Source of the DNA: a virus
IMG/VR virus record: IMGVR_UViG_3300045988_176782
Span: 96,001-160,000 of that record
Length of the DNA stretch: 64,000 bases
Reading direction: 5' to 3' (one strand)
Shown: in pieces, positions 6,454-62,853 of the stretch
How positions within the stretch are numbered: position 1 is the stretch's first letter
Layout: each line of letters begins with the position of its first letter
The notes under the pieces: model-generated
The model's input: only the letters and a program-made list of their open reading frames with translations
Told to the model about the DNA's origin: nothing
Databases searched by the model: none
Translations under genes and position numbers: made by a program

Positions 6454-7035
6454 ATGTTAGATTTAATTACATATGCACTTCTAAAAGCAAAACAAGTTGA
6501 GGCCGCAACAGGCATACAAGGTGCAGAAATAAAGAAAGGAGAACTTATCTTTACTTTGTCTGATGGTTCGATTGTTTCTGCAGGCAAACTTTGGGATGAA
6601 AACTCCTCTCCTATTACCAATGTAAAATTTGAAGATTCTACTCTTATTGTAGAACATCTAAGCGGCGAAAAAGAAACCCTTAATTTACCCCAAAACGAAA
6701 TTAAGGGTGTAGAGTTGTAGGGCACAAATCTTATTTTTACTTTCTTTGATAATACGTAGTTGGTTGCGCCACTTTCTGGAAAACAAATTACCGCCGCAGA
6801 AATTAAAGACAACCACCTAATTTTTACTTTTTCAGATTCTTCAACCTTAGATGCTGGAGAACTTTTAGTTTCTTCTGTGGGTATTGACGATACAAAAATT
6901 TCTCCTTCAACTACCTATAGTAGCGAAAAAATTTAGGATATTATAAATTTTGAACTTATTTGTTGCGGCGACAGTATAGATGTAAATTCTTCTTTGGAAA
7001 ATCTTATTCCTGATGCAACTTCACGTCAATGGTGA
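6454..7035 (+). CDS. structural repeat protein (3 in-frame TAG)
   Basis: ORF 6454..6720 continues in frame through TAG 6718, 6757, 6934 to TGA 7033; internal repeats xLIFTxSDxS..AGxL occur three times. Confidence 0.65.
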
Positions 7036-7038
7036 TTT

Positions 7039-8169
7039 ATGTATTATAAGATAAAAGATGAATTTCTTTCTAACATCGCCGCAGCAATTAGAGAAAAATT
7101 AAACCTGCAAAAATAGCTAGAAATACAAGAATTTTCTCCTCTTATTCATTCTATTGGAGGAGAAACCTTTTTTGAAGTAGAAGGTCAAACTACATTTTTA
7201 GGCTGGGATGGTCTATAGAGGTATCGGCAAAATGCCACTTCTCCTTTCCCTTCTTCTCCCACTCCAAATTTTCTTCTCGTGGAAAAAGAAGTAGGAGATA
7301 ATTTTCTTCGTAGTAAAATCTATACTACAACCTCCGGAAAACACCTACTTTTTATTAAACTTCTCGCCGCCGCAACAATTACACTAAACATTAATGCTTC
7401 TTTTGTTGATTGGGGCGACGGCACACAAAGTACTACTCTATCCCATACCTATTCTACTGCCGGCGCATACACTATAAAATGTGATGGTACAACACTAAAG
7501 GCAAACTTCATTTCTCCTAACAGCATTTTATATGAGGCGCATTTTGCAAAAGGCTTAACCACCATACAACAAAATGCCTTTTCCAATCAAACTTTTCTCC
7601 AAATTCTAACGCTGCCTTCTTCTTGCACCAATATCGCTGCGGAAAATGTATTTAACGGTTGCGTTAGTTTAAATGCGTTAGTGTTTCCAGCTAATTGTTC
7701 TATTACAAAGTTAAATGCTGTAAAAGTTTAGAATATAATTTTGCCTTCTACAATTTCTGAACTACCTTCTTCCTACAACAATAGTAATCCCTCTCTAAAA
7801 CAAATTACTTTGCCTGAAGGTATAAAGGAAATTCCCGCCGCGTCCTTTTTGTATAATTATGGTTTGGAGCAAATTCATTTACCTTCTTCTTTGGTTTCTA
7901 TTGGCTCCAATGCCTTTAAAGGATGCGCGAATTTACAAAAATTGGAAATCCCGCAATCAATTACTACCTTAAGTGTTGATTGTTTTAGGGATTGCACTGG
8001 CTTACTTTCTATTAAATTAAAGTCTCCTACGCCTCCTATTCTCCAAAATGGGCTTGTGTTTGATAAGTCAGCTTGTCCCATTGTTGTGCCTAAAGGGACA
8101 CTTACTACCTACAAAAACGCAACAAATTGGATATTACTCCAAGACCGCTTAAAGGAGGCCGTGCAATGA
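7039..8169 (+). CDS. leucine-rich-repeat (BspA-like) protein (3 in-frame TAG)
   Basis: ATG 7039; TAG 7114, 7216, 7729 join ORFs 7279..7731 and 7741..8169; repeated motif I-P-x-S-[VI]-x-x-I-G-x-x-A-F-x-x-C. Confidence 0.7.
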
Positions 8170-18485: not shown

Positions 18486-20681
18486 ATGGCAAAACAACTT
18501 AACGCTCGTGTTCAAACTAAACGAGACACAGAACAAAATTGGAATTAGGCAATTAACTTTATTCCTAAAGATGGCGAAATTATTATTTATAAAGCTGATA
18601 CAACCGCGGAAGAGCTTCAAACTTTTTATGAAGCATATTTGGCGGAAGTTGAAGCACTAAAATTAATTACCAATACTTCCTCAACCGAATATCAAGAACA
18701 ATCTGTAAAAGTTTCTGAAGCTCTCGCCACCTATAATAATCGCTCTACACGAATTGTGCCGCGTTTTAAAGTAGGAAATGGAGAAAAATATTTAAAAGAT
18801 TTACCTTTTGTAAATGACCCATTTGTAATTAAGGAAGAAGGTAAAGGTCTTTCTGAATGTGATTATGATAAGCGTGCTCACGATATTATTGAGAACTTAA
18901 AGCAATTTGAAGATAATAATACCGGTGAAGTTTAGTATACTGACACAAAATATACTAACGGCGTCGGATTGGGGCTATTAGAGGATACAATTCCTTCAAC
19001 TTCTCAAACCCATACTTTCTACAATACTGGTATTGTTTCTATTCAAGAAAGCGCCATTAATGGTAACATTTCTGTAGCTCGTGGTAATTCCAGCACCGAT
19101 ACCACTGTAAGTGATATTGCAATTCACGGTTTAACTCAAACTGCTTATACTTTACCTGAAACTTTTGCTACAGCAAAAGCGGGCGAGCGCGCAATGACGG
19201 CATTGCAAAATGTCGCTACTCCTTTTGAACCAGTAAGCGTAAAAGATTTAACAATTCAAAAGTTGTTTGATTTAGGTTTCTTAAATACATCTTCTATTCC
19301 TGATTCTGCCGCATATTTACTTTCAGACGAAGGAAAAGCTAAAAAAATAGAAGAAATTCCAAGCTCCGAAAACGGTAGTATAAGTTATTTAATTTTTCTT
19401 GGCCTTTATCCATATGATGTCGCCGCACAAACAATGCTTCGTGGTACAGTTAATTTACAAAAAATGGATGAGGATGACAATCTAATTAACCTCTATGCGC
19501 CTGTAATTGGATTGGGCAAAATGGCTTATATTGATGAAGTTAATGCTTCCAATATTAACTTGGATACTTTGCCTATTATGACAGGTGTTAGGAAAGTTGA
19601 AACTACTGATGAAGATGGCAACATTACCGAAACAACTTATCTTTCTGGGCATAAAGGTTTGGTTCCGACTCCAACAGAAAACGATTATGGCAAAGTTCTA
19701 TTTAGCGATGGCTCTTGGCGACCAATTACAGATATTGCGATTAACATTGGTGATATTCCTTCTGGTTTAGCAACCGATAATGAAGGTAAAATTTATAATA
19801 ATGGTATATTAAATTTAAGTAGTGAAGAAAATATTATAAACTTTACTCAACTTCAATTAGATGAAGCTACTCAAAAATATCAATTAGTTTCCTATCAACT
19901 TGAAATTCCCGCAGCGGTATCTTGGACTTCAACACTTACGAGTGGAGAACAAATTGGCACTTTAACTATTAATAACGCTGAAAATATTTTATATGCTCCG
20001 GTTGCATCCGACAGAGTGGCAAAAGCAGGAGATACAATGACCGGACGATTAATTTCTCCTGCGATAGAAATTCGCAAAGACGCTTGGCCATAGCTTCTAT
20101 TAAGCAATGCTTCAGGTGGTCCTCGTGGAATGATGTATGTAGCAACCAGTGATGGTAGTGTGGGTAATTTATATCTTAGAGCATATTCTTCTGACACAGA
20201 ATATTCTCAAGCTTATTTAACAACTTCTGGAACTTTTTCCGCACCAAGTGTTGAAGGCGCAGTCTTTAACGATTACGCAGAATACCGTGCTTTAAAAGAC
20301 CCAATTGAATCCTACGAACCAGGTTATTGTATGACCTGCAATAGAGATGGAAAACTTTTCCGCACTTCTTCTCGTATGCAACATTGTGAAGGCATTACCT
20401 CTGATACTTTTGGTTTCTCTATTGGCCGCACAGATGAAGCTACTGTTCCTCTTGCAGTTGCAGGTCGCGTACTAGTATATACTTCTGAAGACCCCTCTAC
20501 TTACTATACTGGTCAAGCTGTTTGTGCTAGTAGGGGTGGCCGCGTTTCTAAAATGACAGATTCTGAAATTGCTCAAAATCCTGACCGTATTGTTGGAATA
20601 GTAAGTGAAGTTCCTACATATGAAACTTGGGGAACAAATAATGTTAAAGTTAATGGTAGAATTTGGATTACAGTAAAATAA
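18486..20681 (+). CDS. tail spike/appendage protein with C-terminal autoproteolytic-chaperone-like domain (3 in-frame TAG)
   Basis: ATG 18486; TAG 18546, 18933, 20091 join ORFs 18639.., 18969.., 20130..20681; C-terminus is shared with 20731..22188 (NDYAEYR...GIVSEVP...WG...GRIWI). Confidence 0.7.
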
Positions 20682-20730
20682 ATTTGCCTATAAACAAAAA
20701 TTATTGTAAAATAATTTTGGAGGATGAAAT

Positions 20731-22188
20731 ATGAAACAAGTAAATATTATTGTAAAGTCTTCTGTGCAAGAATAGGAAAAATTTATTGGAACTTATCCAG
20801 AAAAAAACCTATTAACAATTGATGCAGAAGGACAAATTATTCAAGATGATGTAATTACTCACGGTATAAAAATTGGTGATGGCGAAACCAAATGGGATGA
20901 TTTACCTTTCTTGAAGTTGCCGCCTGATATAGCGAATGATTGGAAAGTTTTAGCAGAAAGCGCGACCAATGGCCAACTTGTGACCTTACCTGATTTGAAT
21001 TTTGCATATTTATTAATTGACGCAGAAAAACTAGATAACGCACAGTATACTGAAATTGTAAATCAAATTGCTTCTCGTAATATTGGTTTATATTTAGCCG
21101 CGGCAGAATCAGAAAAATCATTATACCCTGATGGAAGTCAAATTCAAAATTATGCTCTCACAATCAACACAGACGAAGATAAACCATTCATAACTCAAGA
21201 CCCAAATGGTGCAACTGCCACAAATAGTATAGTAGATAGGTTTATTTTTAATACTTCAAATGAATCCAAGTATAATAAAATTGAAGTGAAATTAAAAGAT
21301 AGTGAAGCGCAAGAAAAAATTGAACAGCTTAAAGCTACGGTAGATGATAAATTTACTACTTTTTCTGAGCAAACTAAAAAAGATATTGAACAAGTAAAAA
21401 AAGATATTAAAGAATCCACCTATATTTTTGGTAGCAATAACATCCCCGAAGGAACCACAAGTGGCCTAATTCCTTTTCCTGAAGTAGAAAAACGAACAAA
21501 AGATTACTTCCTTTCTGGCGCAGGGACTTGGGAACAAATCATTCTTACCGCTGATAAAGTAAAATACACCACTCCGACTGGTAGCCAAACATATGTTAAA
21601 GATGTGTTAGATGATTTATTGAGCGGTGCTAGTCTAAGTTTTGCTCAAGGTAGCGCGACAGACCGTCAGGTATTTATTGTTGGCGCGACACAAGAAGGTT
21701 TGAATAATAAAAAAACTACATTAAAATATAGTCCAAGTGTGTATCTTGACTGTAAGGATAATGTACTATATGGCGGCGCTTGGAATGATATTGCTGAATT
21801 TAGGGAGTCTTTTGATTCTTATGTGGCAGGAAACTGTGTATATGAAACTGCACGAGGCAAATTGATGATTTCTGATAAGCGTATGATTCCAAATAGTTAT
21901 ATTGTATCTGACACTTATGGTTATGCTTTGGGTGAGAAAGATATTGATACAGTTCCTGTTACTATTGCCGGTAGAGTTTTGGCTTATTATTTAGAAGATA
22001 AAAATGAACTAAAAATTGGTGATGCTGTATGCAGCGGTCCAAATGGTGCAGTTTGTAAGATGAAGAAATGGGAAAAAATTTTACATCCTGAATGTATTAT
22101 TGGCTATGTAAGTGAAATTCCTCAATATGAGATTTGGGGCCAACATAATACTTCTGTGCGCAATCGTATTTGGATTAAGGTGAAGTAA
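20731..22188 (+). CDS. tail spike/appendage protein, paralogous C-terminal domain (1 in-frame TAG)
   Basis: ATG 20731 after GGAGGA SD; TAG 20773; continues into ORF 20911..22188. Confidence 0.7.
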
Positions 22189-22189
22189 T

Positions 22190-22882
22190 ATGGTAGAAAA
22201 AATTACAGCTTCTTGGTTTAATAGAATTATTGATGCCATTAAGCGTTTAAAGAATTTAGGATTTGCTTTTTCTACAGAAGGAGTCCCAAATAAAATTACC
22301 ATAAATTCAGATGGCACAACAGGAAAACTTTATACTCCTTCTGACTTTAGTGCGATTAATGCAATAATTCAACGAATGTCAACAGATGAATACTTACAGC
22401 AAACAAATAACGCTTCTTATCCTGCACAACAAATTTATTATAATACTGTTTCTGTCGGTAAGCGTGGGCAAAGACCGTTATTAGATTGGAAAAATCAATT
22501 AGATAGAACGGTTGATTCTTGGCAATATATTACTTGCTATCACGGAACTGCAAAAACGAATGGTGTAAATAGCGTTGCGTGCCAGCATGGGGCGAATAGT
22601 AATGGTGATAATACGAATGGTTATTGCCAAAGAGGATTAACTCCTTGTGACCATGGAACTAATCATGTTTGTAATACTAATTATAGTAGTCAAGGTAATA
22701 AAGGTTGGCATACTAAAACTTGCTCCAACGCCACCGTAAAAGATGGAAAAGGCAGCAACACCAATGGTATGTATTCCCCTAACGGCACAAATAGTAACGG
22801 TACTTTTGCTAACACTTGTCCTCACGGAGATTGTCAGCAAGGTATCGATATTAACATTCGTTATAAAACAACACAAGGATAA
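22190..22882 (+). CDS. Cys/His-repeat protein (candidate radical-SAM substrate)
   Basis: ORF track; starts 2 nt after the previous stop; C-terminal 110 aa carry 8 Cys in C-x-[HRQ]-G repeats (CYHG, CQHG, CQRG, CDHG, CPHG, CQQG) within N/S/T/G-rich spacers. Confidence 0.75.
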   Translation: MVEKITASWFNRIIDAIKRLKNLGFAFSTEGVPNKITINSDGTTGKLYTPSDFSAINAIIQRMSTDEYLQQTNNASYPAQQIYYNTVSVGKRGQRPLLDWKNQLDRTVDSWQYITCYHGTAKTNGVNSVACQHGANSNGDNTNGYCQRGLTPCDHGTNHVCNTNYSSQGNKGWHTKTCSNATVKDGKGSNTNGMYSPNGTNSNGTFANTCPHGDCQQGIDINIRYKTTQG

Positions 22883-22891
22883 AAGAAAAGA

Positions 22892-24232
22892 ATGAATAAA
22901 AATTTAAAGCATACTGTCTTAACTTTATTTCCTTCCGCAGTTTGTAATTTAAACTGTACATACTGCAACATTAGTAAAAATAAGGCTCTAATTGAAATTG
23001 ATAAAGAATTGAAAGATTTCTTTAACGACCCAGATTATATAATGCAACGAGTGCATAAGTATTTTGAACCTTGTGCTCTTACCACATTAGAAACCTGGGG
23101 CGGCGAACCTTTTCTCCATATGGATAGAATATATAAGGTATTGCCGCGACTTGTGGAAGATTATCCATATTTACAGAATTTCTTCAGTTCTACAAATTTT
23201 TCTTTTTCTACTTGGATAGAACAATTTTTTGGCCTGATGCACCAATTTAAGCAATGGCCAGACCGTCAATTTAATTACAAACTCCAAATTTCTTGTGATG
23301 GCCCAACTGAATTAAACGATTTGGGGCGCGGAAAAGGCACAACTTTAAAGTGCTTGGAAAATTATGCCAGATTGGTTGAGTCTTTAGAAAAGAGATTGCC
23401 TGCTAATATCAATCTTTCTATTGTTCCTAAGCCTACTTTAAATTTAGAAACAGTTCGTTTATTAAATACAAAAGAAAAAATTATAGAATATTACCAATTC
23501 TTTGAAGATTGTTTTATTAATTTAGTTAATAAGTTGGAATTTAATAATGTTCAAGCTTACACAAACACTCCGAATATGGGCGTTCCTTGTCCAGCAACAA
23601 AAGAGGACGGGTTATATTTTGCTAAGTTTGCGAAAAATTGTGCAGAAGTAAGCAAACACGCAAAGAAATACTTCAAATATTATACTAATGTGCGACCTTT
23701 TTCCATATATCAAAAACAAACGAAAAACCTAACTTTCTATCAATCCTGTATTGGTTGTGGTATGGGATATTCTAATATTGGACTTTTGCCGCAAGACAAA
23801 ATTTCAGTATGTAATGAAGGATTTGTTCAAACTGTAAAACAATATAATGAACTACGCTCTCAAGAGCAAGAAAGCGGCACAATTGAAAAGAAAACTCGTC
23901 AATCAAAAAATCAACATCATCTATGCTATAGTGATGATGAATATGAGAAGTTTGAAGAACAAATGTGTAATTTCTGTTATACTGCAAATACATCAGTTTT
24001 GGTTGGTTTATGCAATCAAATCACTCTTTTGGCTTTAAGCGGCCAGATTGATAAACAATATATACAGCAATCTAATGCTCTTCACGCCGCACAAGTTTTA
24101 GCAGGAGAATACTTTTGTTTAAAAGATAATTATGACATTACAGGATCTTTTTCTCTTGTTCCTGTAGGGTTAATTCGTTTATTATTAAATGGTGCTTTGC
24201 CATATTTGGAGAATAATGATGAAAACATTTAA
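22892..24232 (+). CDS. radical SAM enzyme with C-terminal Cys clusters (SPASM-like)
   Basis: ORF track; N-terminal CNLNCTYC (CxxxCxxC); later clusters CIGCG...C and CNFC...C. Confidence 0.85.
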   Translation: MNKNLKHTVLTLFPSAVCNLNCTYCNISKNKALIEIDKELKDFFNDPDYIMQRVHKYFEPCALTTLETWGGEPFLHMDRIYKVLPRLVEDYPYLQNFFSSTNFSFSTWIEQFFGLMHQFKQWPDRQFNYKLQISCDGPTELNDLGRGKGTTLKCLENYARLVESLEKRLPANINLSIVPKPTLNLETVRLLNTKEKIIEYYQFFEDCFINLVNKLEFNNVQAYTNTPNMGVPCPATKEDGLYFAKFAKNCAEVSKHAKKYFKYYTNVRPFSIYQKQTKNLTFYQSCIGCGMGYSNIGLLPQDKISVCNEGFVQTVKQYNELRSQEQESGTIEKKTRQSKNQHHLCYSDDEYEKFEEQMCNFCYTANTSVLVGLCNQITLLALSGQIDKQYIQQSNALHAAQVLAGEYFCLKDNYDITGSFSLVPVGLIRLLLNGALPYLENNDENI

Positions 24233-25616
24233 AGAAGAAAATAACGATTTTTTAAAGTTTTTGTTAAATGAAAGGTTTTTTAAGAATTGGAAGAAACCTT
24301 CAAATAATGGCAAAGACTTACATTCTATTTCTCAAATTGAGTTTTATATTACTAACCAGTGTAATCAACATTGTGAGTATTGTTATTTATATAATAATTA
24401 CAATATCTATCCAAAAGAAGCCACAGAAGCAAAAACAATTCTTAATAATCTAACTATGGTTTTTAATTGGCTTATTGAAAATAATTATTATATTCAAACT
24501 ATTGATTATTTTTCTGGCGAAATTTGGCATACTCAATTAGGATTGGACATTTTGGATTTGACCTTTAAAGCTTTACAAAATGGTTTGCAAGTTAAACGAA
24601 TAATGATTCCTACAAATGGCTCATTTATTATGAATGATGCGGTTAAACAGAAAATTCAAAACTATATCAATGCTTTCCAAGACCTTGGGACAAGTCTTCA
24701 ACTGTCTTTTTCCATTGATGGTAAAGTAATTGACAACTTGAATCGTCCACGTAATGACAGTTCTAAATTATATACTGACGAATTTTATAATAAAGTATTT
24801 GATTTTGCTTATCATAATGATTTTTTCTTCCATCCAATGGTTGCTGCTTATTCTATTGAAAAATGGAAAGAAAACTTCTATTGGTGGAAAGAAATGTGCC
24901 AAAAATATAATTGGTCAACTCATTATCGTGTAATGATGTTGGAAGTGCGCAATGATGACTGGACGGAAGAAAAGATTAAAACTTATTGTGATTTTCTTAC
25001 ATTTTTAATGGATGATTTTAGAGAAGAAAATCCTCAATATGCTTCAATAGAAAATTTTTCTGAATTTATCTTTGGTAAATATATAACACTAGAAGAAAAC
25101 TATACTTACCTTCCTTGGGTACTTGCGCTAACTTCCGATGTTTTTTCTTGTACAATACCGTGTCAATTATGTATTCGTTTAGGCGATTTAGCTTTGGCAC
25201 CTTGCCATAGAACAGCATACGATAAATTTATCTATGGCTATTTTCAAACTCAAAATGGTCGCATCGTAGACATTAAGGAAAATAATTTTTATCTTGCTGA
25301 ACGATTTCTTTATATGAGCAATATTTACGCTACTCCTCATTGCGATACTTGTGTGTATAATAAGTTCTGTATAAAGGGATGCGCAGGTTCACAGTATGAA
25401 AATACTGGAGATTTATTCTTCCCTATTCCCTCTGTATGCAAATTAGAAAAAGCAAAAATTAATACAGCAATTAACTATTATCAAAAGAATGGCATAATTG
25501 ATTACTACAAAAATCTTCCTATTGACCATTTTATGTATTCAAGTGCCTCAAGACTTTTAGGAGAAATTTATGCTATTCAAAAAGAAACCGAAACTTATTC
25601 AATCTCTAACTCTTGA
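24216..25616 (+). CDS. radical SAM/SPASM enzyme
   Basis: ORF track frame 24189..; GGAG SD before ATG 24216; CNQHCEYC (CxxxCxxC); C-terminal CDTCVYNKFCIKGCAG is SPASM-like. Confidence 0.85.
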   Translation: MMKTFKEENNDFLKFLLNERFFKNWKKPSNNGKDLHSISQIEFYITNQCNQHCEYCYLYNNYNIYPKEATEAKTILNNLTMVFNWLIENNYYIQTIDYFSGEIWHTQLGLDILDLTFKALQNGLQVKRIMIPTNGSFIMNDAVKQKIQNYINAFQDLGTSLQLSFSIDGKVIDNLNRPRNDSSKLYTDEFYNKVFDFAYHNDFFFHPMVAAYSIEKWKENFYWWKEMCQKYNWSTHYRVMMLEVRNDDWTEEKIKTYCDFLTFLMDDFREENPQYASIENFSEFIFGKYITLEENYTYLPWVLALTSDVFSCTIPCQLCIRLGDLALAPCHRTAYDKFIYGYFQTQNGRIVDIKENNFYLAERFLYMSNIYATPHCDTCVYNKFCIKGCAGSQYENTGDLFFPIPSVCKLEKAKINTAINYYQKNGIIDYYKNLPIDHFMYSSASRLLGEIYAIQKETETYSISNS

Positions 25617-46741: not shown

Positions 46742-46831
46742 TGGCCCTTAGTTGAATGGTGACAACAGCTGACTCTAAATCAGTAAGTGGGGTTGACCCC
46801 GCAGGTCTTGGTTCGAATCCAAGAGGGCTAA
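46742..46831 (+). tRNA. suppressor tRNA, anticodon CTA (reads UAG)
   Basis: Hand fold: acceptor TGGCCCT/AGGGCTA (U1:A72, G2:U71), D arm GTTG-AATGGTGA-CAAC, anticodon arm GCTGA-CTCTAAA-TCAGT, 22-nt variable arm with GGGG/CCCC stem, T arm CTTGG-TTCGAAT-CCAAG; no encoded CCA. Confidence 0.8.
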
Positions 46832-46978: not shown

Positions 46979-47815
46979 ATGGGATATATTTATAAAATTA
47001 CTAATGATATTAATGGAAAAGTTTATATTGGTAAAACATTAAATACGGTTGAAGCAAGATGGAAAGAACATTGTTATGATAAAGACCGGAGAAAAGTAGA
47101 AAATCGTCCGCTTTATTAGGCAATGAATAAATATGGTCTTCAGCATTTTTCTATTGAGACTGTAGAAGAATGTAAAACTAATTTAGAAGAACGAGAAGTT
47201 TATTGGATTAAATATTATAATTCTTATATTGGTTGGCCAAATAGCAATGGTTATAACGCTACTTTAGGTGGAGATGGAAAACAATATATTAATTATGATA
47301 TGATTCGTGAATTAGCAAATACAGAAAAAACTTAGGTTGAAATTGCTGCTATTGTTGGATGTAATGTTGATACTGTGGCAAAAGTTTATTTATAGGATAA
47401 TCAAGAAAATTATAATTATAATAAACGGATTAGTATCGCTGTTTATCAGAAAGATAAAGATGGTAATATTATTGCAGAGTATCCAACAATAAAATCCGCC
47501 GCAGAAGCAACCTTAACTAGTCCAAGTCATATTGGACAATGTTGTGCTGGGAAACGAAAAACTTGTGGTGGTTATTATTGGGAATATGTTAATACTAAAG
47601 AAGGTTAGACACGGCGAGCAATTAGTAATTAGCCTAAAGTAAATATCCCGCGTGAAATATTAAAATCATTAATAAGAGAACATCCTATGGAAGAAATTGG
47701 CCGTATATATGAATGTTCTGCAGCATCAATTAGACGATGTTGCGAACGGCTAAATCTTCCACGAACTAAAAAAGAAATCAATTCTTATTCTGATGAAGAA
47801 TGGTTTAAAATATAA
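46979..47815 (+). mobile_element. free-standing GIY-YIG homing endonuclease gene (5 in-frame TAG)
   Basis: MGYIYKITNDINGKVYIGKT...RWKEH...YWIKYYNS (GIY-YIG motifs); TAG 47117, 47333 and three more join the frame to TAA 47813; C-terminal HTH-like region. Confidence 0.8.
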
Positions 47816-47888
47816 AGTTGTTATGGTGTGAAAATCCAACCCATCAAGCCTCTTAATAATGCTCAAACCGATGGGAGTTTCATAGCTT

Positions 47889-56170: not shown

Positions 56171-56245
56171 TGCTCAATAGCTTAACGGTAGAGCAGCGAT
56201 TTCATAAGTCGTTAGATATAGGTTCAAATCCTATTTGAGCAACCA
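56171..56245 (+). tRNA. tRNA with CAT anticodon (Met or Ile2)
   Basis: Acceptor TGCTCAA/TTGAGCA, anticodon loop TTCATAA, T arm ATAGG-TTCAAAT-CCTAT, encoded CCA. Confidence 0.8.
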
Positions 56246-56372
56246 AGCGCTACACAGATTCCCACTAAACTACCACTGGCGTCTCAGACCCAATAGGAGA
56301 GCGGCGATATGTAGCTTGCGGAAGCGCTATATAAGAAGCGAAGTAAGTGGTGGGCGGTTTACCGCCCGATAT

Positions 56373-56446
56373 GCGGGTGTAGCTCAATGGTAGAATTCTA
56401 GCCTTCCAAGCTGGTTACGTGGGTTCGATTCCCATTACTCGCTCCA
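56373..56446 (+). tRNA. tRNA-Gly (TCC)
   Basis: Anticodon arm CTAGC-CTTCCAA-GCTGG, T arm GTGGG-TTCGATT-CCCAT, encoded CCA. Confidence 0.8.
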
Positions 56447-56709
56447 ATTGATTTCAAGTAGAACAAGTTAGCTTCTTGTGAAAGAAATCTGCGCTATGAC
56501 TACGGAAGACAGCGAGTCAGGGTTTGTAGAATTTTCCATACAATTCTACCGTGAACCAGTTCAATTACTGTTGCTCTGCTCTGCGACTGCGTGAAGGTCG
56601 GTTAAAAAGGTGAAGCGGGTTATTACTGCTTCCAAGAGGAGTAAGCGGGAGATGGGCGCAAAGTCTGCGGTGAGTCTAAATCCGTGCTAGCAAAATAGAC
56701 CAATATTAT
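56447..56709 (+). ncRNA. structured spacer RNA (~260 nt), unassigned
   Basis: No ORF; richer in G+C than surrounding DNA; hairpins incl. GTAGAATT/AATTCTAC (8 bp). Confidence 0.4.
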
Positions 56710-56784
56710 GGCTCCGTAGTCAAGCGGTTAAGACGCTGGGTTTTCATCCCAGAGACGCGAGTTCGACTCTCGCCGGAGCTACCA
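56710..56784 (+). tRNA. tRNA-Glu (TTC)
   Basis: Acceptor GGCTCCG/CGGAGCT, anticodon arm CTGGG-TTTTCAT-CCCAG, encoded CCA. Confidence 0.9.
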
Positions 56785-56789
56785 TAGTA

Positions 56790-56888
56790 AAGACACAGGT
56801 TAAACAGCAATACTTATAGTGGTTAATAAAATTTTTGTTGTATAAAATTTTTAATGGGTTCAAATCCCACAAAAGAACCCTGCGTCTT
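56790..56888 (+). repeat. hairpin-family element d (contains a T-arm-like GGGTTCAAATCCC)
   Basis: AAGAC ... GTCTT closing stem; box AAACAGCAATA; followed by GTTTTTT. Confidence 0.5.
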
Positions 56889-56895
56889 GTTTTTT

Positions 56896-56986
56896 GGAAA
56901 GGTGGCTGAGTTGGTTTAAAGTGACAGATTGCTAATCTGTTGAGGGATTTTCCCCTCCGGAGGTTCAAATCCTCTCCTTTCCGCCA
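56896..56986 (+). tRNA. tRNA-Ser (GCT), class II
   Basis: Acceptor GGAAAGG/CCTTTCC, anticodon arm ACAGA-TTGCTAA-TCTGT, long variable arm, encoded CCA. Confidence 0.9.
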
Positions 56987-56989
56987 TAT

Positions 56990-57068
56990 GTGCGCGAGTA
57001 ACCGAATTGGCATAGGTACTGGTCTAAGAAGCCAGGTTTTATGAGTTTAAGTCTCACCTTGCACACCA
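56990..57068 (+). tRNA. tRNA-like gene, apparent anticodon AAG, class-I body
   Basis: Acceptor GTGCGCG/CTTGCAC (one mismatch), anticodon arm CTGGT-CTAAGAA-GCCAG, atypical T loop TTTAAGT, A73, encoded CCA. Confidence 0.5.
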
Positions 57069-57071
57069 TTT

Positions 57072-57130
57072 AAGATACTAATAACGATTATTATTTTCTT
57101 TACAGTTTTTAAAGAACAAGAATGTGTCTT
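57072..57130 (+). repeat. hairpin-family element g
   Basis: AAGATAC ... GTGTCTT closing stem (one G:U). Confidence 0.45.
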
Positions 57131-57136
57131 GATTAT

Positions 57137-57211
57137 GGGGCAGTGACGCAATGGTAGCGTGTTAGCTTTGCAAGCTGAAAGTTGAGGGTTCAAATCCCTT
57201 CTGCTCCACCA
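57137..57211 (+). tRNA. tRNA-Ala (TGC)
   Basis: Acceptor GGGGCAG/CTGCTCC with G3:U70, anticodon arm TTAGC-TTTGCAA-GCTGA, A73, encoded CCA. Confidence 0.9.
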
Positions 57212-57331
57212 GACGTGCCAGTTTCTCCGATGGCCGTATAACTTAGAAATAAGTGAAGCAGAAAGTAGCTATTTTGCATCGGAAAGCAAGTCTCCTTATT
57301 CCTTGCCATACATAAAAGAATAAGGACGCGT

Positions 57332-57408
57332 GCGCTGATAGCCCAATTGGCAGAGGCAATAGACTTAGGATCTATTCAGTGAGAGTTCAAATCTCTCTTG
57401 GCGTACCA
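57332..57408 (+). tRNA. tRNA with anticodon TAG (reads CUA/CUG Leu codons) on a class-I body
   Basis: Anticodon arm ATAGA-CTTAGGA-TCTAT (perfect), 5-nt variable loop TCAGT, T arm GAGAG-TTCAAAT-CTCTC, A73, encoded CCA. Confidence 0.7.
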
Positions 57409-57411
57409 TTT

Positions 57412-57475
57412 AAGACAGTTACAGCAAATCCTCAAAAGATGCGATTGTTAAAATTACGTTATTATTTACTGTCTT
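57412..57475 (+). repeat. hairpin-family element e
   Basis: AAGACAGT ... ACTGTCTT 8-bp closing stem; box TTACAGCAAAT. Confidence 0.6.
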
Positions 57476-57482
57476 GCTATTT

Positions 57483-57546
57483 CGGGATATAGTGCGATGT
57501 GCTGATAACATGCAAGTCGCGGATTCAAATCCCGCCCCTGTAACCA
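57483..57546 (+). other. tRNA-like 3' fragment / long hairpin ending in CCA
   Basis: T-arm-like GCGGA-TTCAAAT-CCCGC and ...CCCTGTA-A-CCA, but no matching 5' acceptor strand; alternative long hairpin CGGGAT...ATCCCG with CTGATAA loop. Confidence 0.3.
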
Positions 57547-57547
57547 T

Positions 57548-57623
57548 CGGGGAATACGTCAATTGGCAGACGGCTTGCTTTGGGAGCAAGCAGCTCTCAG
57601 TTCAAATCTGAGTTCTCCGACCA
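57548..57623 (+). tRNA. tRNA-Pro (TGG)
   Basis: Acceptor CGGGGAA/TTCTCCG, anticodon arm CTTGC-TTTGGGA-GCAAG, encoded CCA. Confidence 0.9.
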
Positions 57624-57676
57624 GAGGAATTTATAATCCTTTTTCATAACAAATGGGAGAATTTCTCCCATCTCCT

Positions 57677-57747
57677 TGGCCGCAAGTAGAGAAATGTTAT
57701 CTCACCGTTTTAACGGAGTAGGCGGTTCAATTCCGCCCTCGGCCATT
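57677..57747 (+). other. tRNA-shaped RNA with a mini-hairpin in place of the anticodon arm
   Basis: D arm GAGA-AATGTTA-TCTC and T arm GGCGG-TTCAATT-CCGCC are clear; acceptor pairs 5 of 7; the anticodon position is CCGT-TTTA-ACGG (4-nt loop). Confidence 0.35.
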
Positions 57748-57876
57748 AGTCGCCCTGGCACAGGGAGAAATGTGTTGCTCGGTAGGAGGGCATCCGCGGA
57801 GAATATACTATCCTACACAAAACAAAATGGGACTGATGCAGGTCCCACTTATAAGGGGAAGTTCCCCTTTTAATAT

Positions 57877-57962
57877 GGAGGAGTGGCGGAATGACGAGAC
57901 GCAGTTGACTCAAAATCAACCACGAAGAAACACTGAGAGTTCAAATCTCTTCTCCTCTACCA
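57877..57962 (+). tRNA. tRNA-Leu (CAA), class II
   Basis: Acceptor GGAGGAG/CTCCTCT, anticodon arm GTTGA-CTCAAAA-TCAAC, long variable arm, A73, encoded CCA. Confidence 0.9.
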
Positions 57963-57968
57963 GGCCTT

Positions 57969-58042
57969 AAGACAGATCAGCAATTTATTTAGATGAATGC
58001 ATTTTTCACCTCCAAGGTAGGCTCTTGGTTGTATCCTGTCTT
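57969..58042 (+). repeat. hairpin-family element f
   Basis: AAGACAG ... CTGTCTT closing stem; box ATCAGCAATTT; followed by GTTTTT. Confidence 0.6.
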
Positions 58043-58071
58043 GTTTTTATTTCATATGAAAGGAACTAATT

Positions 58072-58311
58072 ATGATTAGAGCAAATATTGAATTAATTAC
58101 TGCTACTGACATGCGAAGTTTTATTTCTTGTGTTAATAGCGATGGCACCGCAGACAAGTATACTCTTGAGAATTTTGATGGCAGTTATCGTGCTGATGCA
58201 CGTTCTATGTTAGGTGTTGCCTACGCGACCGCGGAATTTGATAGTTTATTTCTTGTTAATAGAATTCATGATGGTGTTTTTCCAAAAGGTATTGATAAAT
58301 TTCGTAAGTGA
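58072..58311 (+). CDS. hypothetical protein
   Basis: ORF track; AAAGGAA SD. Confidence 0.5.
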   Translation: MIRANIELITATDMRSFISCVNSDGTADKYTLENFDGSYRADARSMLGVAYATAEFDSLFLVNRIHDGVFPKGIDKFRK

Positions 58312-58341
58312 AGTCGTAATGTAATATTACGACTTTATTTT
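58312..58341 (+). terminator. intrinsic terminator
   Basis: AGTCGTAAT / ATTACGACT hairpin then T-run. Confidence 0.8.
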
Positions 58342-58370
58342 TTGACAAAAGTAAATTTTTCTTTTATAAT
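58342..58370 (+). promoter_or_regulatory. sigma70/SigA-type promoter
   Basis: TTGACA-17-TATAAT. Confidence 0.7.
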
Positions 58371-58391
58371 AAAAGAAAAGGAGATAAAAAC

Positions 58392-58664
58392 ATGATAAAA
58401 AGTGTGCCTATTAAATATGAAGAAAGTATTGAAGTGCAACGTTTATTTCATAAGTATAATGCATTGCTTGCAGTTTTGGCTTATATGAATGATAATAGTT
58501 CTAAATATACAGATTTTTTAGATAAAAAAGTGAATGAAGCTACCGAGTTATATATTGAATTAGAACAAGCAAAAGATAAATATGGCATGCGATATAAGCC
58601 ACAAGGTGATTGGCAACATTATACTTTTGACTTTGATAATAATGTTATTATATATGAGGATTAA
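58392..58664 (+). CDS. hypothetical protein
   Basis: ORF track; AAGGAG SD. Confidence 0.5.
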   Translation: MIKSVPIKYEESIEVQRLFHKYNALLAVLAYMNDNSSKYTDFLDKKVNEATELYIELEQAKDKYGMRYKPQGDWQHYTFDFDNNVIIYED

Positions 58665-59969
58665 ATGAAAAAGTCTTATTTAGATTTAATTGCAACTTTA
58701 TATTCAGAACCTGATTTACGAAGTTGTAGAAACATTACCTTATAGGTTTGCGATGATTGCTGTTTAAAATGTTCATATTGCTATCAAATTCATAAAAGCC
58801 ACAATTATATGACAAAAGAGACTGCAAAAGCCATTATTGATTTACTATTTAGAATGTATGATGAAGATAAGCCAGACGCATTTATCAATCATACAACTCA
58901 TGGTATAATTCTTGATTTTATCGGTGGCGAGCCTCTAATGAACGTTGAAATTATGGAATTTGCTACTGAATACTTTATTGACCAATGTTTGCAAAAAAAT
59001 CACGAGTGGCTTTATAATTTTCGCACAAGTTTTGCAACAAATGGTATTCTTTATTTTGAACCAAAAGTATAGGCATATTTACAAAAATTTCACAATTTTA
59101 TTTCTATGACCGTTAGTATTGATGGCCCAAAAGAAATTCATGATATTTGCCGTCTTGACCGTGATGGTAATGGTAGTTTTGAACGAGCAAGTACCGCGGC
59201 GCACCATTATTGGGAATATTATGGAAAAGATGTCGGGGGACGAGATGAAACTAAAGTTACCATTGCTCCAGACAATTTATCTCAATTAAATAAAATTGTA
59301 GATTATTTCTTAAATGAAGGCGTTACAGTGATTAATGCCAATCCAGTTTATGAAGTAGAATGGACAGTAGAATAGGCAAAAATATATTATAATGAATTAA
59401 AAAAATTAGCAAATAAATTGTTATTAAATTTAGAAATTAAATGTAGTATTTTTGATAGCCATTAGAACGTCCCCTTGCCTATTAGTGATAATACGAACTG
59501 GTGCGGCGGTGATGGACATATGTTAGCTTTTGACCCGCACGGAAATGCTTATCCTTGTTTGAGATATATGGAAAGCTCTTTAGGTGGAGAAGTTGAGCCT
59601 TTAATTATTGGTGATACTAATGGTATTTATAATACGCCAGAAAGTCAAGAAATTAGGTGTAAACTTTGTACATTAACTCGTAGTAATTAGTCTACGGAAG
59701 AATGTACGCATTGTTCAATCGCCGCGGGCTGCTCTTGGTGCAGTGCTTGGAATTATCAGCAATTTAAAAAGATCGGTAAGCGTAGCACGAATATTTGTTG
59801 GATGCACCGAGCCGCAGCATTGGCCAATGTCTATTATTGGAATCTTAAATACCGTTTAGAAGAAAATGAAAAAAGATTCCCAATTTATCTTGAACAAAAA
59901 TATGCTTTGTAGATAATACCCTCTGAAGAATATGATTTGTTGCTTTCACTTTCTCAATGGGGAGAGTGA
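58665..59969 (+). CDS. radical SAM/SPASM enzyme (6 in-frame TAG)
   Basis: ATG 58665; one frame through TAG 58743, 59070, 59373, 59463, 59688, 59910 to TGA 59967, joining ORFs 58809.., 59106.., 59475..; CCLKCSYC (CxxxCxxC); C-terminal CTHCSIAAGCSWC. Confidence 0.75.
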
Positions 59970-59974
59970 TATTT

Positions 59975-60517
59975 ATGAGCTGGCTAAAAGGAGATAAAAT
60001 TACAGCAGAGGATTTCATTGCTATTAAAGAAAAAGTTAAAAACGAATTAGCTCGGCGAAATGCAGAAGGAAGTGTAGCAAACTATGCAACGAGCTATACT
60101 GATATGCCTGTATAGAAAGGGAAAATAAAAGTTAGCCATATTACAGAAATTGTTGAACCATTGAGTCATATTAATAATGTAGATTATGATTTAAATAAAC
60201 CAATTACAATAAAATCTTTAACTACAATTCAAACAATGTTAAATAGTTTAACCACAGCAGAAAAGGCTGCATCAACATTAGAAGCAACCGGGTGTAAAGC
60301 TTCCTGCACTGGTTTATGTTATACATCTTGTTCAGAAACGTGTCGTTCTTGTGGAGATAGTTGCAGTCAAAATTGTGATACTGGATGCAATTGGACTTGT
60401 AAAGGGTCATGCCGCAATACTTGTTCTGGACGCTGCAAAGGTAGCTGTGGAACTACTTGCCAATTGGGCTGTTCTAACAATTGCAAAGGAAGCAGTGTAG
60501 GTGGCTGTTCTGCATAA
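59975..60517 (+). CDS. protein with C-terminal CxxxC-repeat domain (1 in-frame TAG)
   Basis: ATG 59975, TAG 60113, continues into ORF 60161..60517; the last ~75 aa have Cys at nearly every 4th residue (CKASCTGLCYTSCSETCRSCGDSCSQNCDTGCNWTCKGSC...). Confidence 0.7.
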
Positions 60518-60754
60518 AATATACAGTAAATTAAATAAATATTAAGTGCTATAATGATCGAACAAAAATTTATTCCTTTAATAATTCAATATAATATATT
60601 CAATATATTAAATACTAAATTGCTTGTATTATTAGATTTGATTTTCCTAACCACAAAACCGTTGCTTTAGAATCTATTATAAAATAAGGCATAGAATAAT
60701 TTCCTAATTTTAACCTAAAACAAATTTAATCTAGGAGCTTCGTTGCTCCTACTT

Positions 60755-60828
60755 GCCGAAATAGCATAATGGTAGTGCAAGGCTCTTGTAAAGCTTAGAT
60801 TTCAGTTCAATTCTGAATTTCGGCTCCA
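60755..60828 (+). tRNA. tRNA-Thr (TGT)
   Basis: Acceptor GCCGAAA/TTTCGGC, anticodon arm AGGCT-CTTGTAA-AGCTT, T arm TTCAG-TTCAATT-CTGAA, encoded CCA. Confidence 0.9.
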
Positions 60829-61270
60829 TTTAACCAGACTGAGAGTTAGAGGTAAATACCTGCTCGTGATGATTTTAAATGTAATCATGAAAACCTCATA
60901 AAATATGGCACGCAGAGAGCTAGGCTCTACAATGGAAACGCTATACGAGATAGGAGACCCCTTACAGACGTAACAGTGTATGCCAAGATGCCGCGGCATA
61001 AGGTGCAATTCCTGAGTAATTGGTGTCGGCAAGTCCGAGCTGTTTTAAAGGAGCGGGCAGAGCGCAAAAATATGATGGGACAACTGCTTACCTCATATTT
61101 TGCTCAGTAGGCGGTCGTGCCGCAGGAAGGCCCACAGGTATGTGGAGTATAGCAAGTCGGGGAGTTAGATGCAAGCCAGAATTGGGTTAGAACCGACAGG
61201 GAGAATAATTCTCTAACAGAGTAAAGGTATGGATGCGGCAATGAGACGCGACCTTTACTCTTTTTATTTT
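60829..61270 (+). ncRNA. structured non-coding RNA (~440 nt), unassigned
   Basis: No ORF on the + strand; G+C-enriched; long-range pair GTTAGAG (60845) / CTCTAAC (61213); ends in terminator AGAGTAAAGGT...ACCTTTACTCT plus T-run; directly follows tRNA-Thr. Confidence 0.55.
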
Positions 61271-61275
61271 AAAAT

Positions 61276-61304
61276 TTGACTTTTCTAAAATTTTCTCCTA
61301 TAAT
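61276..61304 (+). promoter_or_regulatory. sigma70/SigA-type promoter
   Basis: TTGACT-17-TATAAT. Confidence 0.65.
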
Positions 61305-61365
61305 ATGTCTATAAAAGATAAGCAATAGCTCTATTGCTTCCAAAATGAAAAGGAGAAAAGAAAAC

Positions 61366-62853
61366 ATGAATAATCTACTAAATTCCCTAAAGCAAGAAAC
61401 CAACTATACCTACACCACCAATGGCGCAGTAGCGCACAAATCTACCCTAAACAAAGTCCTTGATCTATTTGCCCTTGGCGGCGCTTATCGTGTAAAGAGT
61501 GACAATGACGTTATTCTTCTCTTTAAAGAAGCATATGACGAGAATCCTGAACTCGCGCTAAAGTGCTTGTTCTTTATTCGTGATATTCGCGGCAATGGTT
61601 ATGGTGAACGTCGCTTTTTCCGTGTATGCCTTCATTGGCTTGCTACACAACATCCCGAAGTTGTGAAGCGAAATATTAACTATATTCCATTTGTTGGCCG
61701 TTATGACGACCTCTATGCTATAATGGATACTCCTTGTATGCTGGATGCTTTTACTTTCTTTGATCGCCAACTGCGACTTGATATGGAATGCCAAACTCCC
61801 AGTTTATGTGCAAAGTGGATTTGGTCAATGAATTGTTCTTCTGCCGAACATAAGAAATATGGTAAGGCACTTGCAGATTATATGCGTTTAACTCCTAAGC
61901 AATATCGTAAGATGCTTACTGGTTTGCGCGCGAAGATTAAGATTGTTGAAACTCTAATGTCTCAGAATCGTTGGGATGAAATTCAATTTGATAAATTACC
62001 TTCTAAGGCCGGCTTTAAGTATCGTAATGCTTTTGCAAAGAACGATTACACTAAAGAACGCTATGAAGCCTTTATGAAGTCTAAGACCACTAAGGTAAAT
62101 GCAAAAACCTTATTCCCCTATGAAGTCGTAAAGCAAGCTATTAACGCTGATTGGCAAGATGAACTAACCTGCAATACTCTTGAGAAGTATTGGGAGAATC
62201 TTGCTGACTATTTCAATAATGCTACTTTTAATGCTCTGGCCATTGTTGATACTTCTGGTTCTATGCGTAGTGGTGCTGCTTCCGCCGCGCCTATTGATGT
62301 GGCAATTTCTCTTGGTATGTATTGTGCGGAAAAAGCTAATGGTCCTTTTAAGAATCATTATATCAGTTTTTCCTCTAAGCCTCAATTGATTGAAATTAAG
62401 GGTGTCAATTTTGTTGACAAGGTTCAGCGTATTTACCAAACTAATCTTTGTGAAAATACTAACATTGAAGCTACTTTTGATCTTCTTTTAAATAATATTG
62501 TGAAGTATAATTTAAATGAAGAAGATATTCCAGAGTATCTTGTAATTATTTCCGATATGCAGTGGGACGAAGGGGTTTGTGAAATTCGCGGGCGATACTA
62601 TATGCCTGCGGCGAATCCTCAAACTTTAATTGACCAAATTAAAGAAAAGTGGAAAAGTGTCGGAATAAGGATGCCTAAATTAATTTTCTGGAATGTCAAC
62701 GCAAAACATCCTGTCATCCCTGCTCTTGATGGAAATTACAGTTATATCAGCGGCTTTAGCCCCGCGATTTTTGAACAAATTATGACCGGTAAAACCGGCG
62801 TAGAACTAATGCTTGAAGCACTAAGTTCTGAACGTTATAAAGACATTCATTAA
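61366..62853 (+). CDS. helical N-domain plus vWA protein (DUF2828-like; TROVE/Ro60-like layout?)
   Basis: ORF track frame 61345..; AAGGAG SD before ATG 61366; N-terminus TTNGAVAHKSTLNKVLDLFALGG; MIDAS-like VDTSGSM. Confidence 0.7.
   Translation: MNNLLNSLKQETNYTYTTNGAVAHKSTLNKVLDLFALGGAYRVKSDNDVILLFKEAYDENPELALKCLFFIRDIRGNGYGERRFFRVCLHWLATQHPEVVKRNINYIPFVGRYDDLYAIMDTPCMLDAFTFFDRQLRLDMECQTPSLCAKWIWSMNCSSAEHKKYGKALADYMRLTPKQYRKMLTGLRAKIKIVETLMSQNRWDEIQFDKLPSKAGFKYRNAFAKNDYTKERYEAFMKSKTTKVNAKTLFPYEVVKQAINADWQDELTCNTLEKYWENLADYFNNATFNALAIVDTSGSMRSGAASAAPIDVAISLGMYCAEKANGPFKNHYISFSSKPQLIEIKGVNFVDKVQRIYQTNLCENTNIEATFDLLLNNIVKYNLNEEDIPEYLVIISDMQWDEGVCEIRGRYYMPAANPQTLIDQIKEKWKSVGIRMPKLIFWNVNAKHPVIPALDGNYSYISGFSPAIFEQIMTGKTGVELMLEALSSERYKDIH

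Follow-up and report, generated by a model that had tools for sequence, protein, structure and literature searches.

A Putative Phage-Borne CXXX-Repeat Modification Cassette: Radical SAM/SPASM Enzyme, Small Partner Protein, and Cys-Repeat Target

Why would a phage encode a radical S-adenosylmethionine (rSAM) enzyme next to a protein that carries a Cys at nearly every fourth position of its C-terminal end, and is this pairing more than an accident of gene order? The question is raised by IMG/VR virus record IMGVR_UViG_3300045988_176782, of which we analyzed positions 96,001 to 160,000 (one strand of 64,000 nt, called the window here; coordinates are those of this stretch). The window is phage-like, with nearly all genes on the + strand, and at 58311..60517 it holds a three-gene unit in which a terminator and a promoter are followed by genes for a 90-aa partner, a 434-aa rSAM/SPASM enzyme (rSAM3), and a 180-aa target. 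An initial annotation, made from the letters alone, had described the enzyme gene with its six in-frame TAG codons, its CCLKCSYC motif, and its C-terminal Cys motif, as well as the 180-aa gene 5 nt behind it; all of these we read in the sequence at the same coordinates. It had also reported a Cys at nearly every fourth position, which stands, and at least 17 Cys, which becomes 18. It had missed the third gene at 58392..58664, the terminator and promoter of the unit, and the fact that this type of cassette is already catalogued. Our best overall explanation, which we regard as probable, is that the unit is a self-contained phage copy of the CXXX-repeat system that would install a thioether ladder on a virion-associated tail protein late in infection. 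The parts of the unit are as follows.

58311..58343, + strand: intrinsic terminator of the upstream gene (predicted; 10-bp stem AAGTCGTAAT / ATTACGACTT, 5-nt loop, then TATTTTTT)
58342..58370, + strand: putative sigma-70-type promoter (TTGACA, 17 nt, TATAAT; 12 of 12 consensus matches)
58392..58664, + strand: small partner gene, 90 aa, zero TAG codons
58665..59969, + strand: rSAM/SPASM enzyme gene, ATG at 58665, stop TGA at 59967-59969, 434 codons, six in-frame TAG
58758..58781, + strand: CX3CX2C motif of the enzyme (C32, C36, C39), 98% conserved in 66 homologues
59502..59798, + strand: SPASM region of the enzyme, seven conserved Cys
59975..60517, + strand: target gene, ATG at 59975, 5 nt past the enzyme stop, TAA at 60515-60517, 180 aa, one TAG
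59975..60292, + strand: N-domain of the target, residues 1-106, TAG at 60113
60293..60508, + strand: CXXX-repeat tail of the target, residues 107-178, 18 Cys

Family membership and linkage of the three genes

By its profile matches, the cassette appears to be of a type already catalogued in silico (TIGR04115, TIGR04116, TIGR04114, TIGR04117, and PF27846). The enzyme matches TIGR04115, named "radical SAM peptide maturase, CXXX-repeat target family", over profile positions 2-359 of 359 (E = 2.2e-98, 330.1 bits), and this model outscores the next family by 190 bits. TIGR04115 is also the sole family at E <= 1e-60 for the window enzyme and for each relative that was scored, with values that run from 586 bits in L046-type loci through 350-359 (P0034, P0056, P0116, L005) and 326-327 (P0022, P0023) to 274-302 (L072, L020, L014). 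The window enzyme and these relatives appear to be a single continuous family that straddles the curated cutoff; relatives of 54-62% identity exceed it, and a 62%-identical homologue already bears the family name in one JGI record. The enzyme also matches phrog_1802 (E = 1e-49), and a search at E <= 1e-20 gives 3,349 homologues. Ranked after TIGR04115 are the families of PapB (2.5e-40), the SCIFF maturase (1.3e-23), and QhpD (7.8e-23).

The sequence CCLKCSYC, residues 32-39 of the enzyme, holds the CX3CX2C motif (C32, C36, C39), which binds the rSAM [4Fe-4S] cluster. In an alignment with 66 distinct full-length homologues that use the standard code, the SPASM Cys residues 280, 298, 347, 350, 356, 359, and 378 are 98-100% conserved, with CTHCSIAAGCSWC as residues 347-359, and by analogy with the SPASM family the seven would coordinate two auxiliary Fe-S clusters. 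Among solved structures CteB (5wgg, E = 1.1e-16) is the nearest, and in this match query residues 21-304 align with residues 96-371 of the chain, and the SCIFF model TIGR03974 likewise aligns from its position 96, with the query starting at residue 21. Because both alignments begin at residue 96 of the known proteins, the window enzyme lacks their N-terminal, leader-binding recognition element (RRE) for peptides that are made on the ribosome and modified after translation (RiPPs). We note that two orthologues (42-45% identical) are split by inteins of the Hint/PT-HINT type (L180, 484..2643; L181, 9608..11578), and that the insertions fall where conservation is highest, near residue 359 (the final Cys in the SPASM CX2CX5CX2C) and just before residue 39 of the CX3CX2C motif.

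The small protein, whose TAA stop directly abuts the enzyme-gene ATG, matches TIGR04116, "CXXX repeat peptide modification system protein", over profile positions 4-89 of 90 with E = 0.0015 and 18.7 bits (cutoff 50). Its AlphaFold2 (AF2) model, with a predicted local distance difference test (pLDDT) score of 86, consists of strand beta1, a long alpha-hairpin, and strands beta2-beta3. A Foldseek comparison of this fold with PDB gave a best E of 0.6, all matches being generic helical hairpins, and a profile built from 27 small proteins returned zero PDB sequence matches. Clear membership in TIGR04116 was considered and dropped, as just 2 of 27 diverse phage small proteins match that model at E <= 0.01. 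A PqqD-like RRE of winged-helix fold was ruled out by the fold search and the profile search, the model being beta-alpha-alpha-beta-beta. We infer that the small protein stands in for the recognition domain that the enzyme is missing.

The linkage of the three genes was followed from both ends. A target-seeded search turned up 99 IMG/VR relatives and another 8 in GTDB genomes, from which 96 loci were examined, and an enzyme-seeded search took the best 80 of 480 IMG/VR relatives. The enzyme lies within 6 kb of the target in 92 of the 96 target-seeded loci, three of the four misses ending at a contig end, and an iterated profile detects a small-protein homologue, conserved in size and position, in 90 of them, directly 5' of the enzyme gene in the loci inspected. 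The order is target-small-enzyme in 76 loci and small-enzyme-target, as in the window, in 13; all but one are co-directional. From the enzyme side, 68 of 80 loci have a same-strand CxxxC/CxxC run of at least seven Cys no more than 2.5 kb from the enzyme, and at least one further locus has a shorter, broken Cys run that the pattern missed. The start motif CxxxCTGLC is present in just 37 of these 80, which suggests that the enzyme family serves a wider set of CXXX targets than the N-domain family of the window. The trio stays together in some 170 loci, from phages and prophages. The claim of the initial annotation that enzyme and Cys-repeat protein form a dedicated pair, not a chance neighborhood, is borne out by these counts, by the survival of the pairing through a change of gene order, and by the existence of curated models for it. 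As judged from these comparisons, the locus is a genuine, well-linked enzyme, partner, and substrate cassette of a family defined in silico.

The Cys tail and its proposed modification

The target owes its character to the last 72 residues (107-178), which hold 18 Cys at spacings of, in order, 4,4,4,4,3,4,4,4,4,4,4,4,4,4,4,4,8. Fifteen of the 17 spacings are exactly 4, a number that none of 100,000 shuffled versions of the tail attains, and the run is the sole one of its kind in the six frames of the 64-kb window. The protein matches TIGR04117 (E = 4.8e-5, 23.4 bits, cutoff 50) and TIGR04114 (E = 0.0038, 17.6 bits, cutoff 20), and precomputed matches to PF27846, "tSAM_targ_Cxxx_rpt", exist for the 96%-identical orthologue P0001 and for 13 other homologues. 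Its N-domain comprises about 105 conserved residues with the pattern ITAxxFxxLKxxVKxExxRR..GSV..Y, in which E24, R27, and R28 are invariant in the family alignment. This domain is predicted to be helical, with three or four helices (AF2 helices at 11-29, 53-67, and 82-99, pLDDT 50-73). The tail, presumed to be the substrate region, opens with the family-invariant GCKASCTGLC. Among 70 distinct homologues it contains 6 to 122 Cys, spaced by 4 in 1,374 cases and by 3 in 359. Between two Cys, the first position is mostly Ser/Thr, the second Gly, and the third Gly/Ser/Thr, with Gly at 46% of middle positions.

An exhaustive profile search gives 1,664 representatives of the target family, most of 160-270 aa and a few of 957-1,803 aa. 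In giant members of 957-1,785 aa, hundreds of CxxxC residues are fused to Flg_new or beta-rich domains. One of them, P0142, joins a Flg_new domain to about 700 residues of CxxxC and is encoded near an intein-split enzyme orthologue (45% identity), a second Flg_new giant, a leucine-rich repeat protein, and a T4-type portal; another, P0223, lies near a fibre with Phage_fiber_rpt and carbohydrate-binding module domains and near an intein-bearing enzyme orthologue with the small protein upstream. Two arrangements extend the Cys content of a locus in other ways. In L046 (6523..7192) and about 30 sister loci the frame continues past the target TAA and adds about 190 aa and 47-50 Cys; the target stop is followed by a perfect AAGGAGG, and the extension has zero canonical in-frame start codons. 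The equivalent open reading frame (ORF) of L080 (about 6620..7320) has its own Shine-Dalgarno sequence and ATG and encodes a pure CxxxC protein of 60 Cys without the N-domain.

These features suggested to us the following mechanism. The enzyme, with the small protein in place of an RRE, would act repeatedly along the target tail; at each site a 5'-deoxyadenosyl radical would abstract a hydrogen, and the Cys sulfur would be joined to a carbon of a nearby residue, so that a disordered Gly/Ser/Thr/Cys segment would become a covalent thioether ladder. We propose thioether chemistry because the nearest characterized relatives, PapB, CteB, and QhpD, form thioethers. These three enzymes form ranthionines (S-C-beta / S-C-gamma), which QhpD does inside a protein subunit (PMC11002830). 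By this analogy, we lean somewhat toward an enzyme that installs a ladder of Cys-to-carbon thioethers along the tail with the help of the small protein. It is unlikely, in our estimate, that the same trio performs another reaction, such as formylglycine or dehydroalanine formation (anSME-like), C-C or C-O cross-linking, epimerization, or the linking of subunits in an oligomeric fibre. SPASM enzymes do catalyze many reactions, and anSME (4k37) and cyclophane-forming maturases are among the matches; the substrate shows no conserved Asp, Glu, Asn, or Thr acceptor position, and we found no characterized family member. Against these alternatives, PapB, the SCIFF maturase, and QhpD, thioether formers all, outrank anSME by many orders of magnitude, and the Cys periodicity is the one invariant feature of the substrate, as fits Cys in the role of reactive donor.

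Where the product goes is suggested by the neighborhoods of the relatives. Of the 88 loci with enough upstream sequence, 31 have a fibre gene whose end is no more than 150 nt from the start of the target, and in those 31 loci the adjacent fibre shares a C-terminal domain with the window genes g18486 and g20731; one such fibre has a weak match to the Peptidase_G2 intramolecular-chaperone (IMC) domain (E = 1e-4). PHROG and Pfam searches of the recurrent "fourth gene" and of the upstream fibres gave mostly zero matches. In L046-type loci, the other large group, the upstream order is YqbQ-like/CHAP, Sheath_initiator, Baseplate_J, Mu Gp48-like, and then the target, and in L005 and L020 endolysins lie just 3' of the cassette. 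A protease, exporter, or immunity gene was seen in none of the annotated neighborhoods. From the synteny, the fusions, the variation in repeat number, and the absence of protease and exporter genes, we think the chances about even that the product is a tail-fibre or baseplate protein of the virion, not a secreted antibiotic peptide, with the tail as a redox-insensitive, protease-resistant stalk of variable length. The label "tail fiber" in PHROG, which had been considered as support for a structural role, was dropped as too thin: this family is assigned to just 2 of 22 target homologues, and 17 of 22 fall in the unannotated phrog_6085.

All eight GTDB matches come from anaerobes of the gut, with genomes of Firmicutes type (Ruminococcus, Gemmiger formicilis, Blautia, Erysipelotrichaceae, Clostridia, Eubacteriales, and a "Mollicutes" metagenome-assembled genome). 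The proposed stalk would suit phages of strict anaerobes, where disulfides would be unreliable and an oxygen-sensitive enzyme could work. That thioethers, unlike disulfides, survive in the reducing gut is a rationale that fits but proves nothing. We put forward, tentatively, that phages of anaerobic gut Firmicutes use their own rSAM enzyme to weld a Cys-ladder stalk of variable length (6-122 Cys), which in giant adhesin-like fibres would at times extend over hundreds of residues, into a tail-fibre or baseplate protein. The enzyme-target pair occurs in no cultured phage of INPHARED and is found in unannotated faecal contigs only. One locus, L090 of Gemmiger formicilis DFI.6.10 (NZ_JANGCG010000001.1, about 406-419 kb), contains an intact target, small protein, and enzyme in the layout of the phage locus L014; it is presumably a prophage in a cultured isolate and may offer an experimental system.

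Several observations weigh against the cassette as a CXXX-repeat system that hardens a virion protein. The enzyme score of 330.1 bits is 20 below the curated TIGR04115 cutoff of 350, the TIGR04116 model matches just 2 of the 27 diverse small proteins, and neither the sequence nor the predicted fold of the small protein is recognizable as an RRE. The AF2 model of the target, from a 20-sequence alignment, is poor (pLDDT 48.7, about 30 in the tail, which is unmodelled), and the target has no significant match in a BFVD fold search or in PDB sequence and profile searches. In the tail, no residue recurs as a fixed acceptor in the way that Asp does in PapB substrates, and with the +4 step from donor to acceptor that PapB uses, the link would land on the next Cys. 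We found no experimental characterization of any family member in the literature, so the chemistry is assigned by analogy alone. As for linkage, the initial annotation had said that rSAM genes without Cys-repeat neighbors in relatives would count against the pairing. Such genes do occur, in one sub-lineage only: L107, L109, and L120 have the enzyme and the small protein and zero Cys-repeat ORFs within 6 kb. Conversely, L052 (5296..6606) has two tandem targets and no rSAM gene within 6 kb. As for the virion, the PHROG label is as thin as said above, and the place between the fibre and the lysis genes is one where accessory genes classically settle as well, so that synteny alone is no proof of incorporation into the particle. 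The window copy itself, flanked by a tRNA array and a Ro-like gene, stands 35 kb away from the fibre genes, and with its own consensus promoter and terminator it looks like a mobile accessory cassette.

The two exceptional arrangements have features of their own. L107, L109, and L120, together with the truncated L103-L106, L112, and L119, are TAG-recoded, with enzymes 53-58% identical to that of the window. Their small-protein and enzyme genes come after genes for a 640-aa fibre and a 136-aa protein, which on our reading bears tandem carbohydrate-binding-like repeats, and the enzyme gene is followed by that of a conserved 112-aa Lys/Glu-rich protein. L052, the sole case of its kind among loci with full flanks, lies in a structural region, and its first target copy is apparently degraded.

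With these points in view, could the cassette make a RiPP instead? The 180-aa protein would then be a precursor with the N-domain as a long leader, and the cross-linked tail would be freed at lysis as a bioactive peptide (a bacteriocin, a signal, or a host-modulating factor), the product of an accessory gene set unrelated to the virion. The curated name "peptide maturase" and the RiPPs made by the nearest characterized relatives speak for this, as do the autonomy of the window cassette and its distance from the fibre genes, the accumulation of accessory genes between fibre and lysis genes, and the second substrate of L080-type loci, a pure CxxxC repeat without the N-domain. We nevertheless consider it improbable. 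No leader peptidase, exporter, or immunity gene was seen in the annotated neighborhoods; the N-domain, with about 105 residues and invariant positions, is better conserved than the "core", the reverse of a typical leader and core; repeat number varies 20-fold; the giant members are fused to adhesin or fibre-type domains; and the cassette is found in large, apparently virulent phages, among them a 165.6-kb IMG/VR contig that matches the phage of the window at 95%. A tail that is instead a metallothionein- or Csp-like binder of Cu, Zn, or Fe-S without covalent modification, next to an rSAM enzyme that acts elsewhere or merely co-occurs, is very improbable: the likeness to Pfam DUF326 (E = 0.037) and to Ccsp chains in PDB (E = 2.6-5) is below threshold, as is every metal-protein match, the Cys of Csp sit on alpha-helices whereas this tail, with 46% Gly at mid-repeat and rich in Ser/Thr, is predicted to be non-helical, and the linkage of enzyme and target (92 of 96 and 68 of 80) holds across gene orders and phage types, even though L052 has targets with zero enzymes within 6 kb, 72 residues with 18 thiols would have a strong affinity for soft metals, and leftover thiols could still bind metal after modification.

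TAG recoding, genomic setting, and the first locus

The enzyme gene of the cassette is interrupted by TAG at codons 27, 136, 237, 267, 342, and 416 (58743, 59070, 59373, 59463, 59688, and 59910) and the target gene at codon 47. Many window ORFs are likewise broken by TAG alone and end in TAA or TGA. In the alignment with the standard-code homologues, codon 27 corresponds to Q in 60 of 66, codon 136 in 42 of 66, and codon 342 in 61 of 66, and the other three fall in variable columns; this comparison indicates that TAG encodes Gln (genetic code 15). The window contains a suppressor tRNA with anticodon CTA at 46742..46831 (90 nt) that has a long variable arm and U1-A72 as its first pair. A long variable arm is typical of Ser, Leu, or Tyr tRNAs and is at odds with TAG as Gln; readings of TAG as Ser, Leu, or Tyr, which the arm suggested, were ruled out by the homologue alignment, which favors Gln. 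On the 3' side of this tRNA lie a GIY-YIG-like gene (46979..47815), an abiF RNA (47840..47876, 49.9 bits), and a full-length ROOL RNA (48109..48684, 295.8 bits, positions 1-574 of 574).

TAG occurs in 19 of the 70 tabulated window ORFs. The enzyme gene is the richest, with six TAG against ten CAA/CAG, and TAG is also present in genes for tail-like proteins, the two fibres, and an amidase-like protein, among others. Across phage clades, recoded stops are a hallmark of late genes for structure and lysis, and delayed translation has been proposed as their effect (Borges et al., bioRxiv 10.1101/2021.08.26.457843). Because of this association, we expect enzyme and target to be made late: their TAG codons, six and one, would delay translation until the suppressor tRNA is active, so that both would appear together with fibre and lysis proteins.

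The terminator at 58311..58343, which comes from direct reading of the sequence and was not listed by the promoter and terminator scan, is predicted to insulate the 5' side of the cassette. The putative promoter, a consensus match only, is the top-scoring site of 57900..61400 and lies 22 nt 5' of the small-protein start codon. Directly 5' of the cassette is the tRNA array (55229..57962), with 11 ARAGORN calls and two more tRNA matches found by Rfam only, one of which spans 116 nt (55903..56018) and may hold an intron. On the 3' side, tRNA-Thr (60755..60828) and a Ro/TROVE-like gene (61345..62853; DUF2828 and DUF7788, phrog_850 "RNA-binding protein") flank a GC-rich non-coding stretch at 60829..61262 (+ strand). 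Its GC content of 0.49 exceeds that of the flanking DNA (0.14-0.30), a hairpin and a U-run close it, and it is 89-93% identical in DNA among phages whose adjacent targets are 47-57% identical. An Rfam search of the stretch gave zero matches at E <= 1, and the z-score of its minimum free energy is just -1.4. We regard it as a candidate large non-coding RNA, which we take to be possibly a Y-RNA-like partner of the Ro-like protein.

The initial annotation had set the cassette beside a first locus 36 kb away, and the two rSAM genes there (22892..24232 and 24189..25616) do lie 35.8 kb upstream. The first locus (18486..25616) consists of the fibre-like genes g18486 and g20731, which share an IMC-like C-terminal domain, then a gene for a 230-aa protein rich in Cys, His, Asn, and Gly (22190..22882), and then two divergent rSAM/SPASM genes without TAG. 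It fills the post-fibre slot that holds the CXXX target in 31 relatives and looks like a positional analogue with different enzymes and a different substrate. The proposal that the two loci reinforce each other does not hold up: their enzymes belong to different rSAM/SPASM lineages, and the 230-aa protein (g22190) has only two near-identical IMG/VR relatives, so that it adds no independent evidence and no deeper profile could be built. The reported echo between the N-termini of the two repeat proteins (KITAEDFIAIK and KITASWFNRII) reaches an hhalign probability of 6% and is not sustained. Similarity of rSAM3 to the enzyme at 22892..24232 is not significant, and to that at 24189..25616 it amounts to 23% identity in the core region (E = 9e-5). 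A recent paralogous origin of the three enzymes was ruled out, their likeness being only at the level of the superfamily.

Significance and comparison with known systems

A large family, which comprises 3,349 enzyme homologues and, on the target side, 1,664 clusters, appears from these loci to be mostly a feature of phage tail modules, and with only three small genes the system is directly testable now. If the stalk reading is true, it would show how phages of strict anaerobes stabilize extracellular parts without disulfides, and it would add a new class of post-translational modification of virions and, for a RiPP-type maturase, a structural role unrelated to antibiotics, the first such in a virus. 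If true, it would also provide enzymology with a processive system that forms thioethers at many sites of a protein, and a genetically encoded route to rigid, redox-proof peptide rods.

The nearest comparison is the CXXX-repeat system itself, which has the same three components in the same sizes and adjacency, with target Cys at every fourth residue; all three window members, however, score under the curated cutoffs. That system is defined in silico only, and the phage or tail-module setting is absent from the model names we saw. Systems of this sort were reportedly defined by Haft and Basu in 2011, and our literature search found no work on the CXXX-repeat system, on TIGR04114-04117, or on a phage SPASM enzyme with a Cys-rich target. 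PapB/freyrasin and CteB/thermocellin, the next-best matches, are likewise rSAM/SPASM enzymes on Cys-rich substrates, and PapB installs six repeated thioether rings. The window enzyme scores well under the cutoffs of PapB (138.7 vs 340, NF047865) and of the SCIFF maturase (83.6 vs 425, TIGR03974), as a relative and not a member. PapB and CteB have an N-terminal RRE, absent in the window enzyme, and they act on short peptides in which the acceptors are defined (Asp, Glu, Thr), whereas the window target is 180 aa long, with an N-domain and no fixed acceptor.

QhpD, which forms Cys-Asp and Cys-Glu thioethers in QhpC, a protein subunit kept in the larger assembly of quinohemoprotein amine dehydrogenase, is by analogy the best precedent for rSAM cross-linking of a structural protein; the window enzyme is only distantly similar to it (80.8 vs a cutoff of 453, TIGR03906), and substrate and context differ, with no repeats in the QhpD system. 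In the sactipeptides thuricin CD and thurincin H, donor Cys in CxxxC/CxxC spacing are cross-linked by an rSAM/SPASM enzyme. There, the hairpin has 3-4 Cys that are joined to an acceptor strand free of Cys, whereas the window family has 18 (up to 122) Cys and no Cys-free partner segment, and sactisynthase families score much lower on the window enzyme. The copper storage proteins Csp/Ccsp (DUF326) share the CxxxC periodicity but are helical bundles without a maturase; the window target scores an insignificant 14.5 bits against a cutoff of 20.4, and its Gly-rich tail argues against helices. Lastly, the "chainmail" of the HK97 capsid consists of autocatalytic isopeptide cross-links. Should the structural reading be true, the likeness would lie in a covalently hardened particle, with the difference that here a dedicated, phage-encoded radical enzyme would act on a tail-associated protein.

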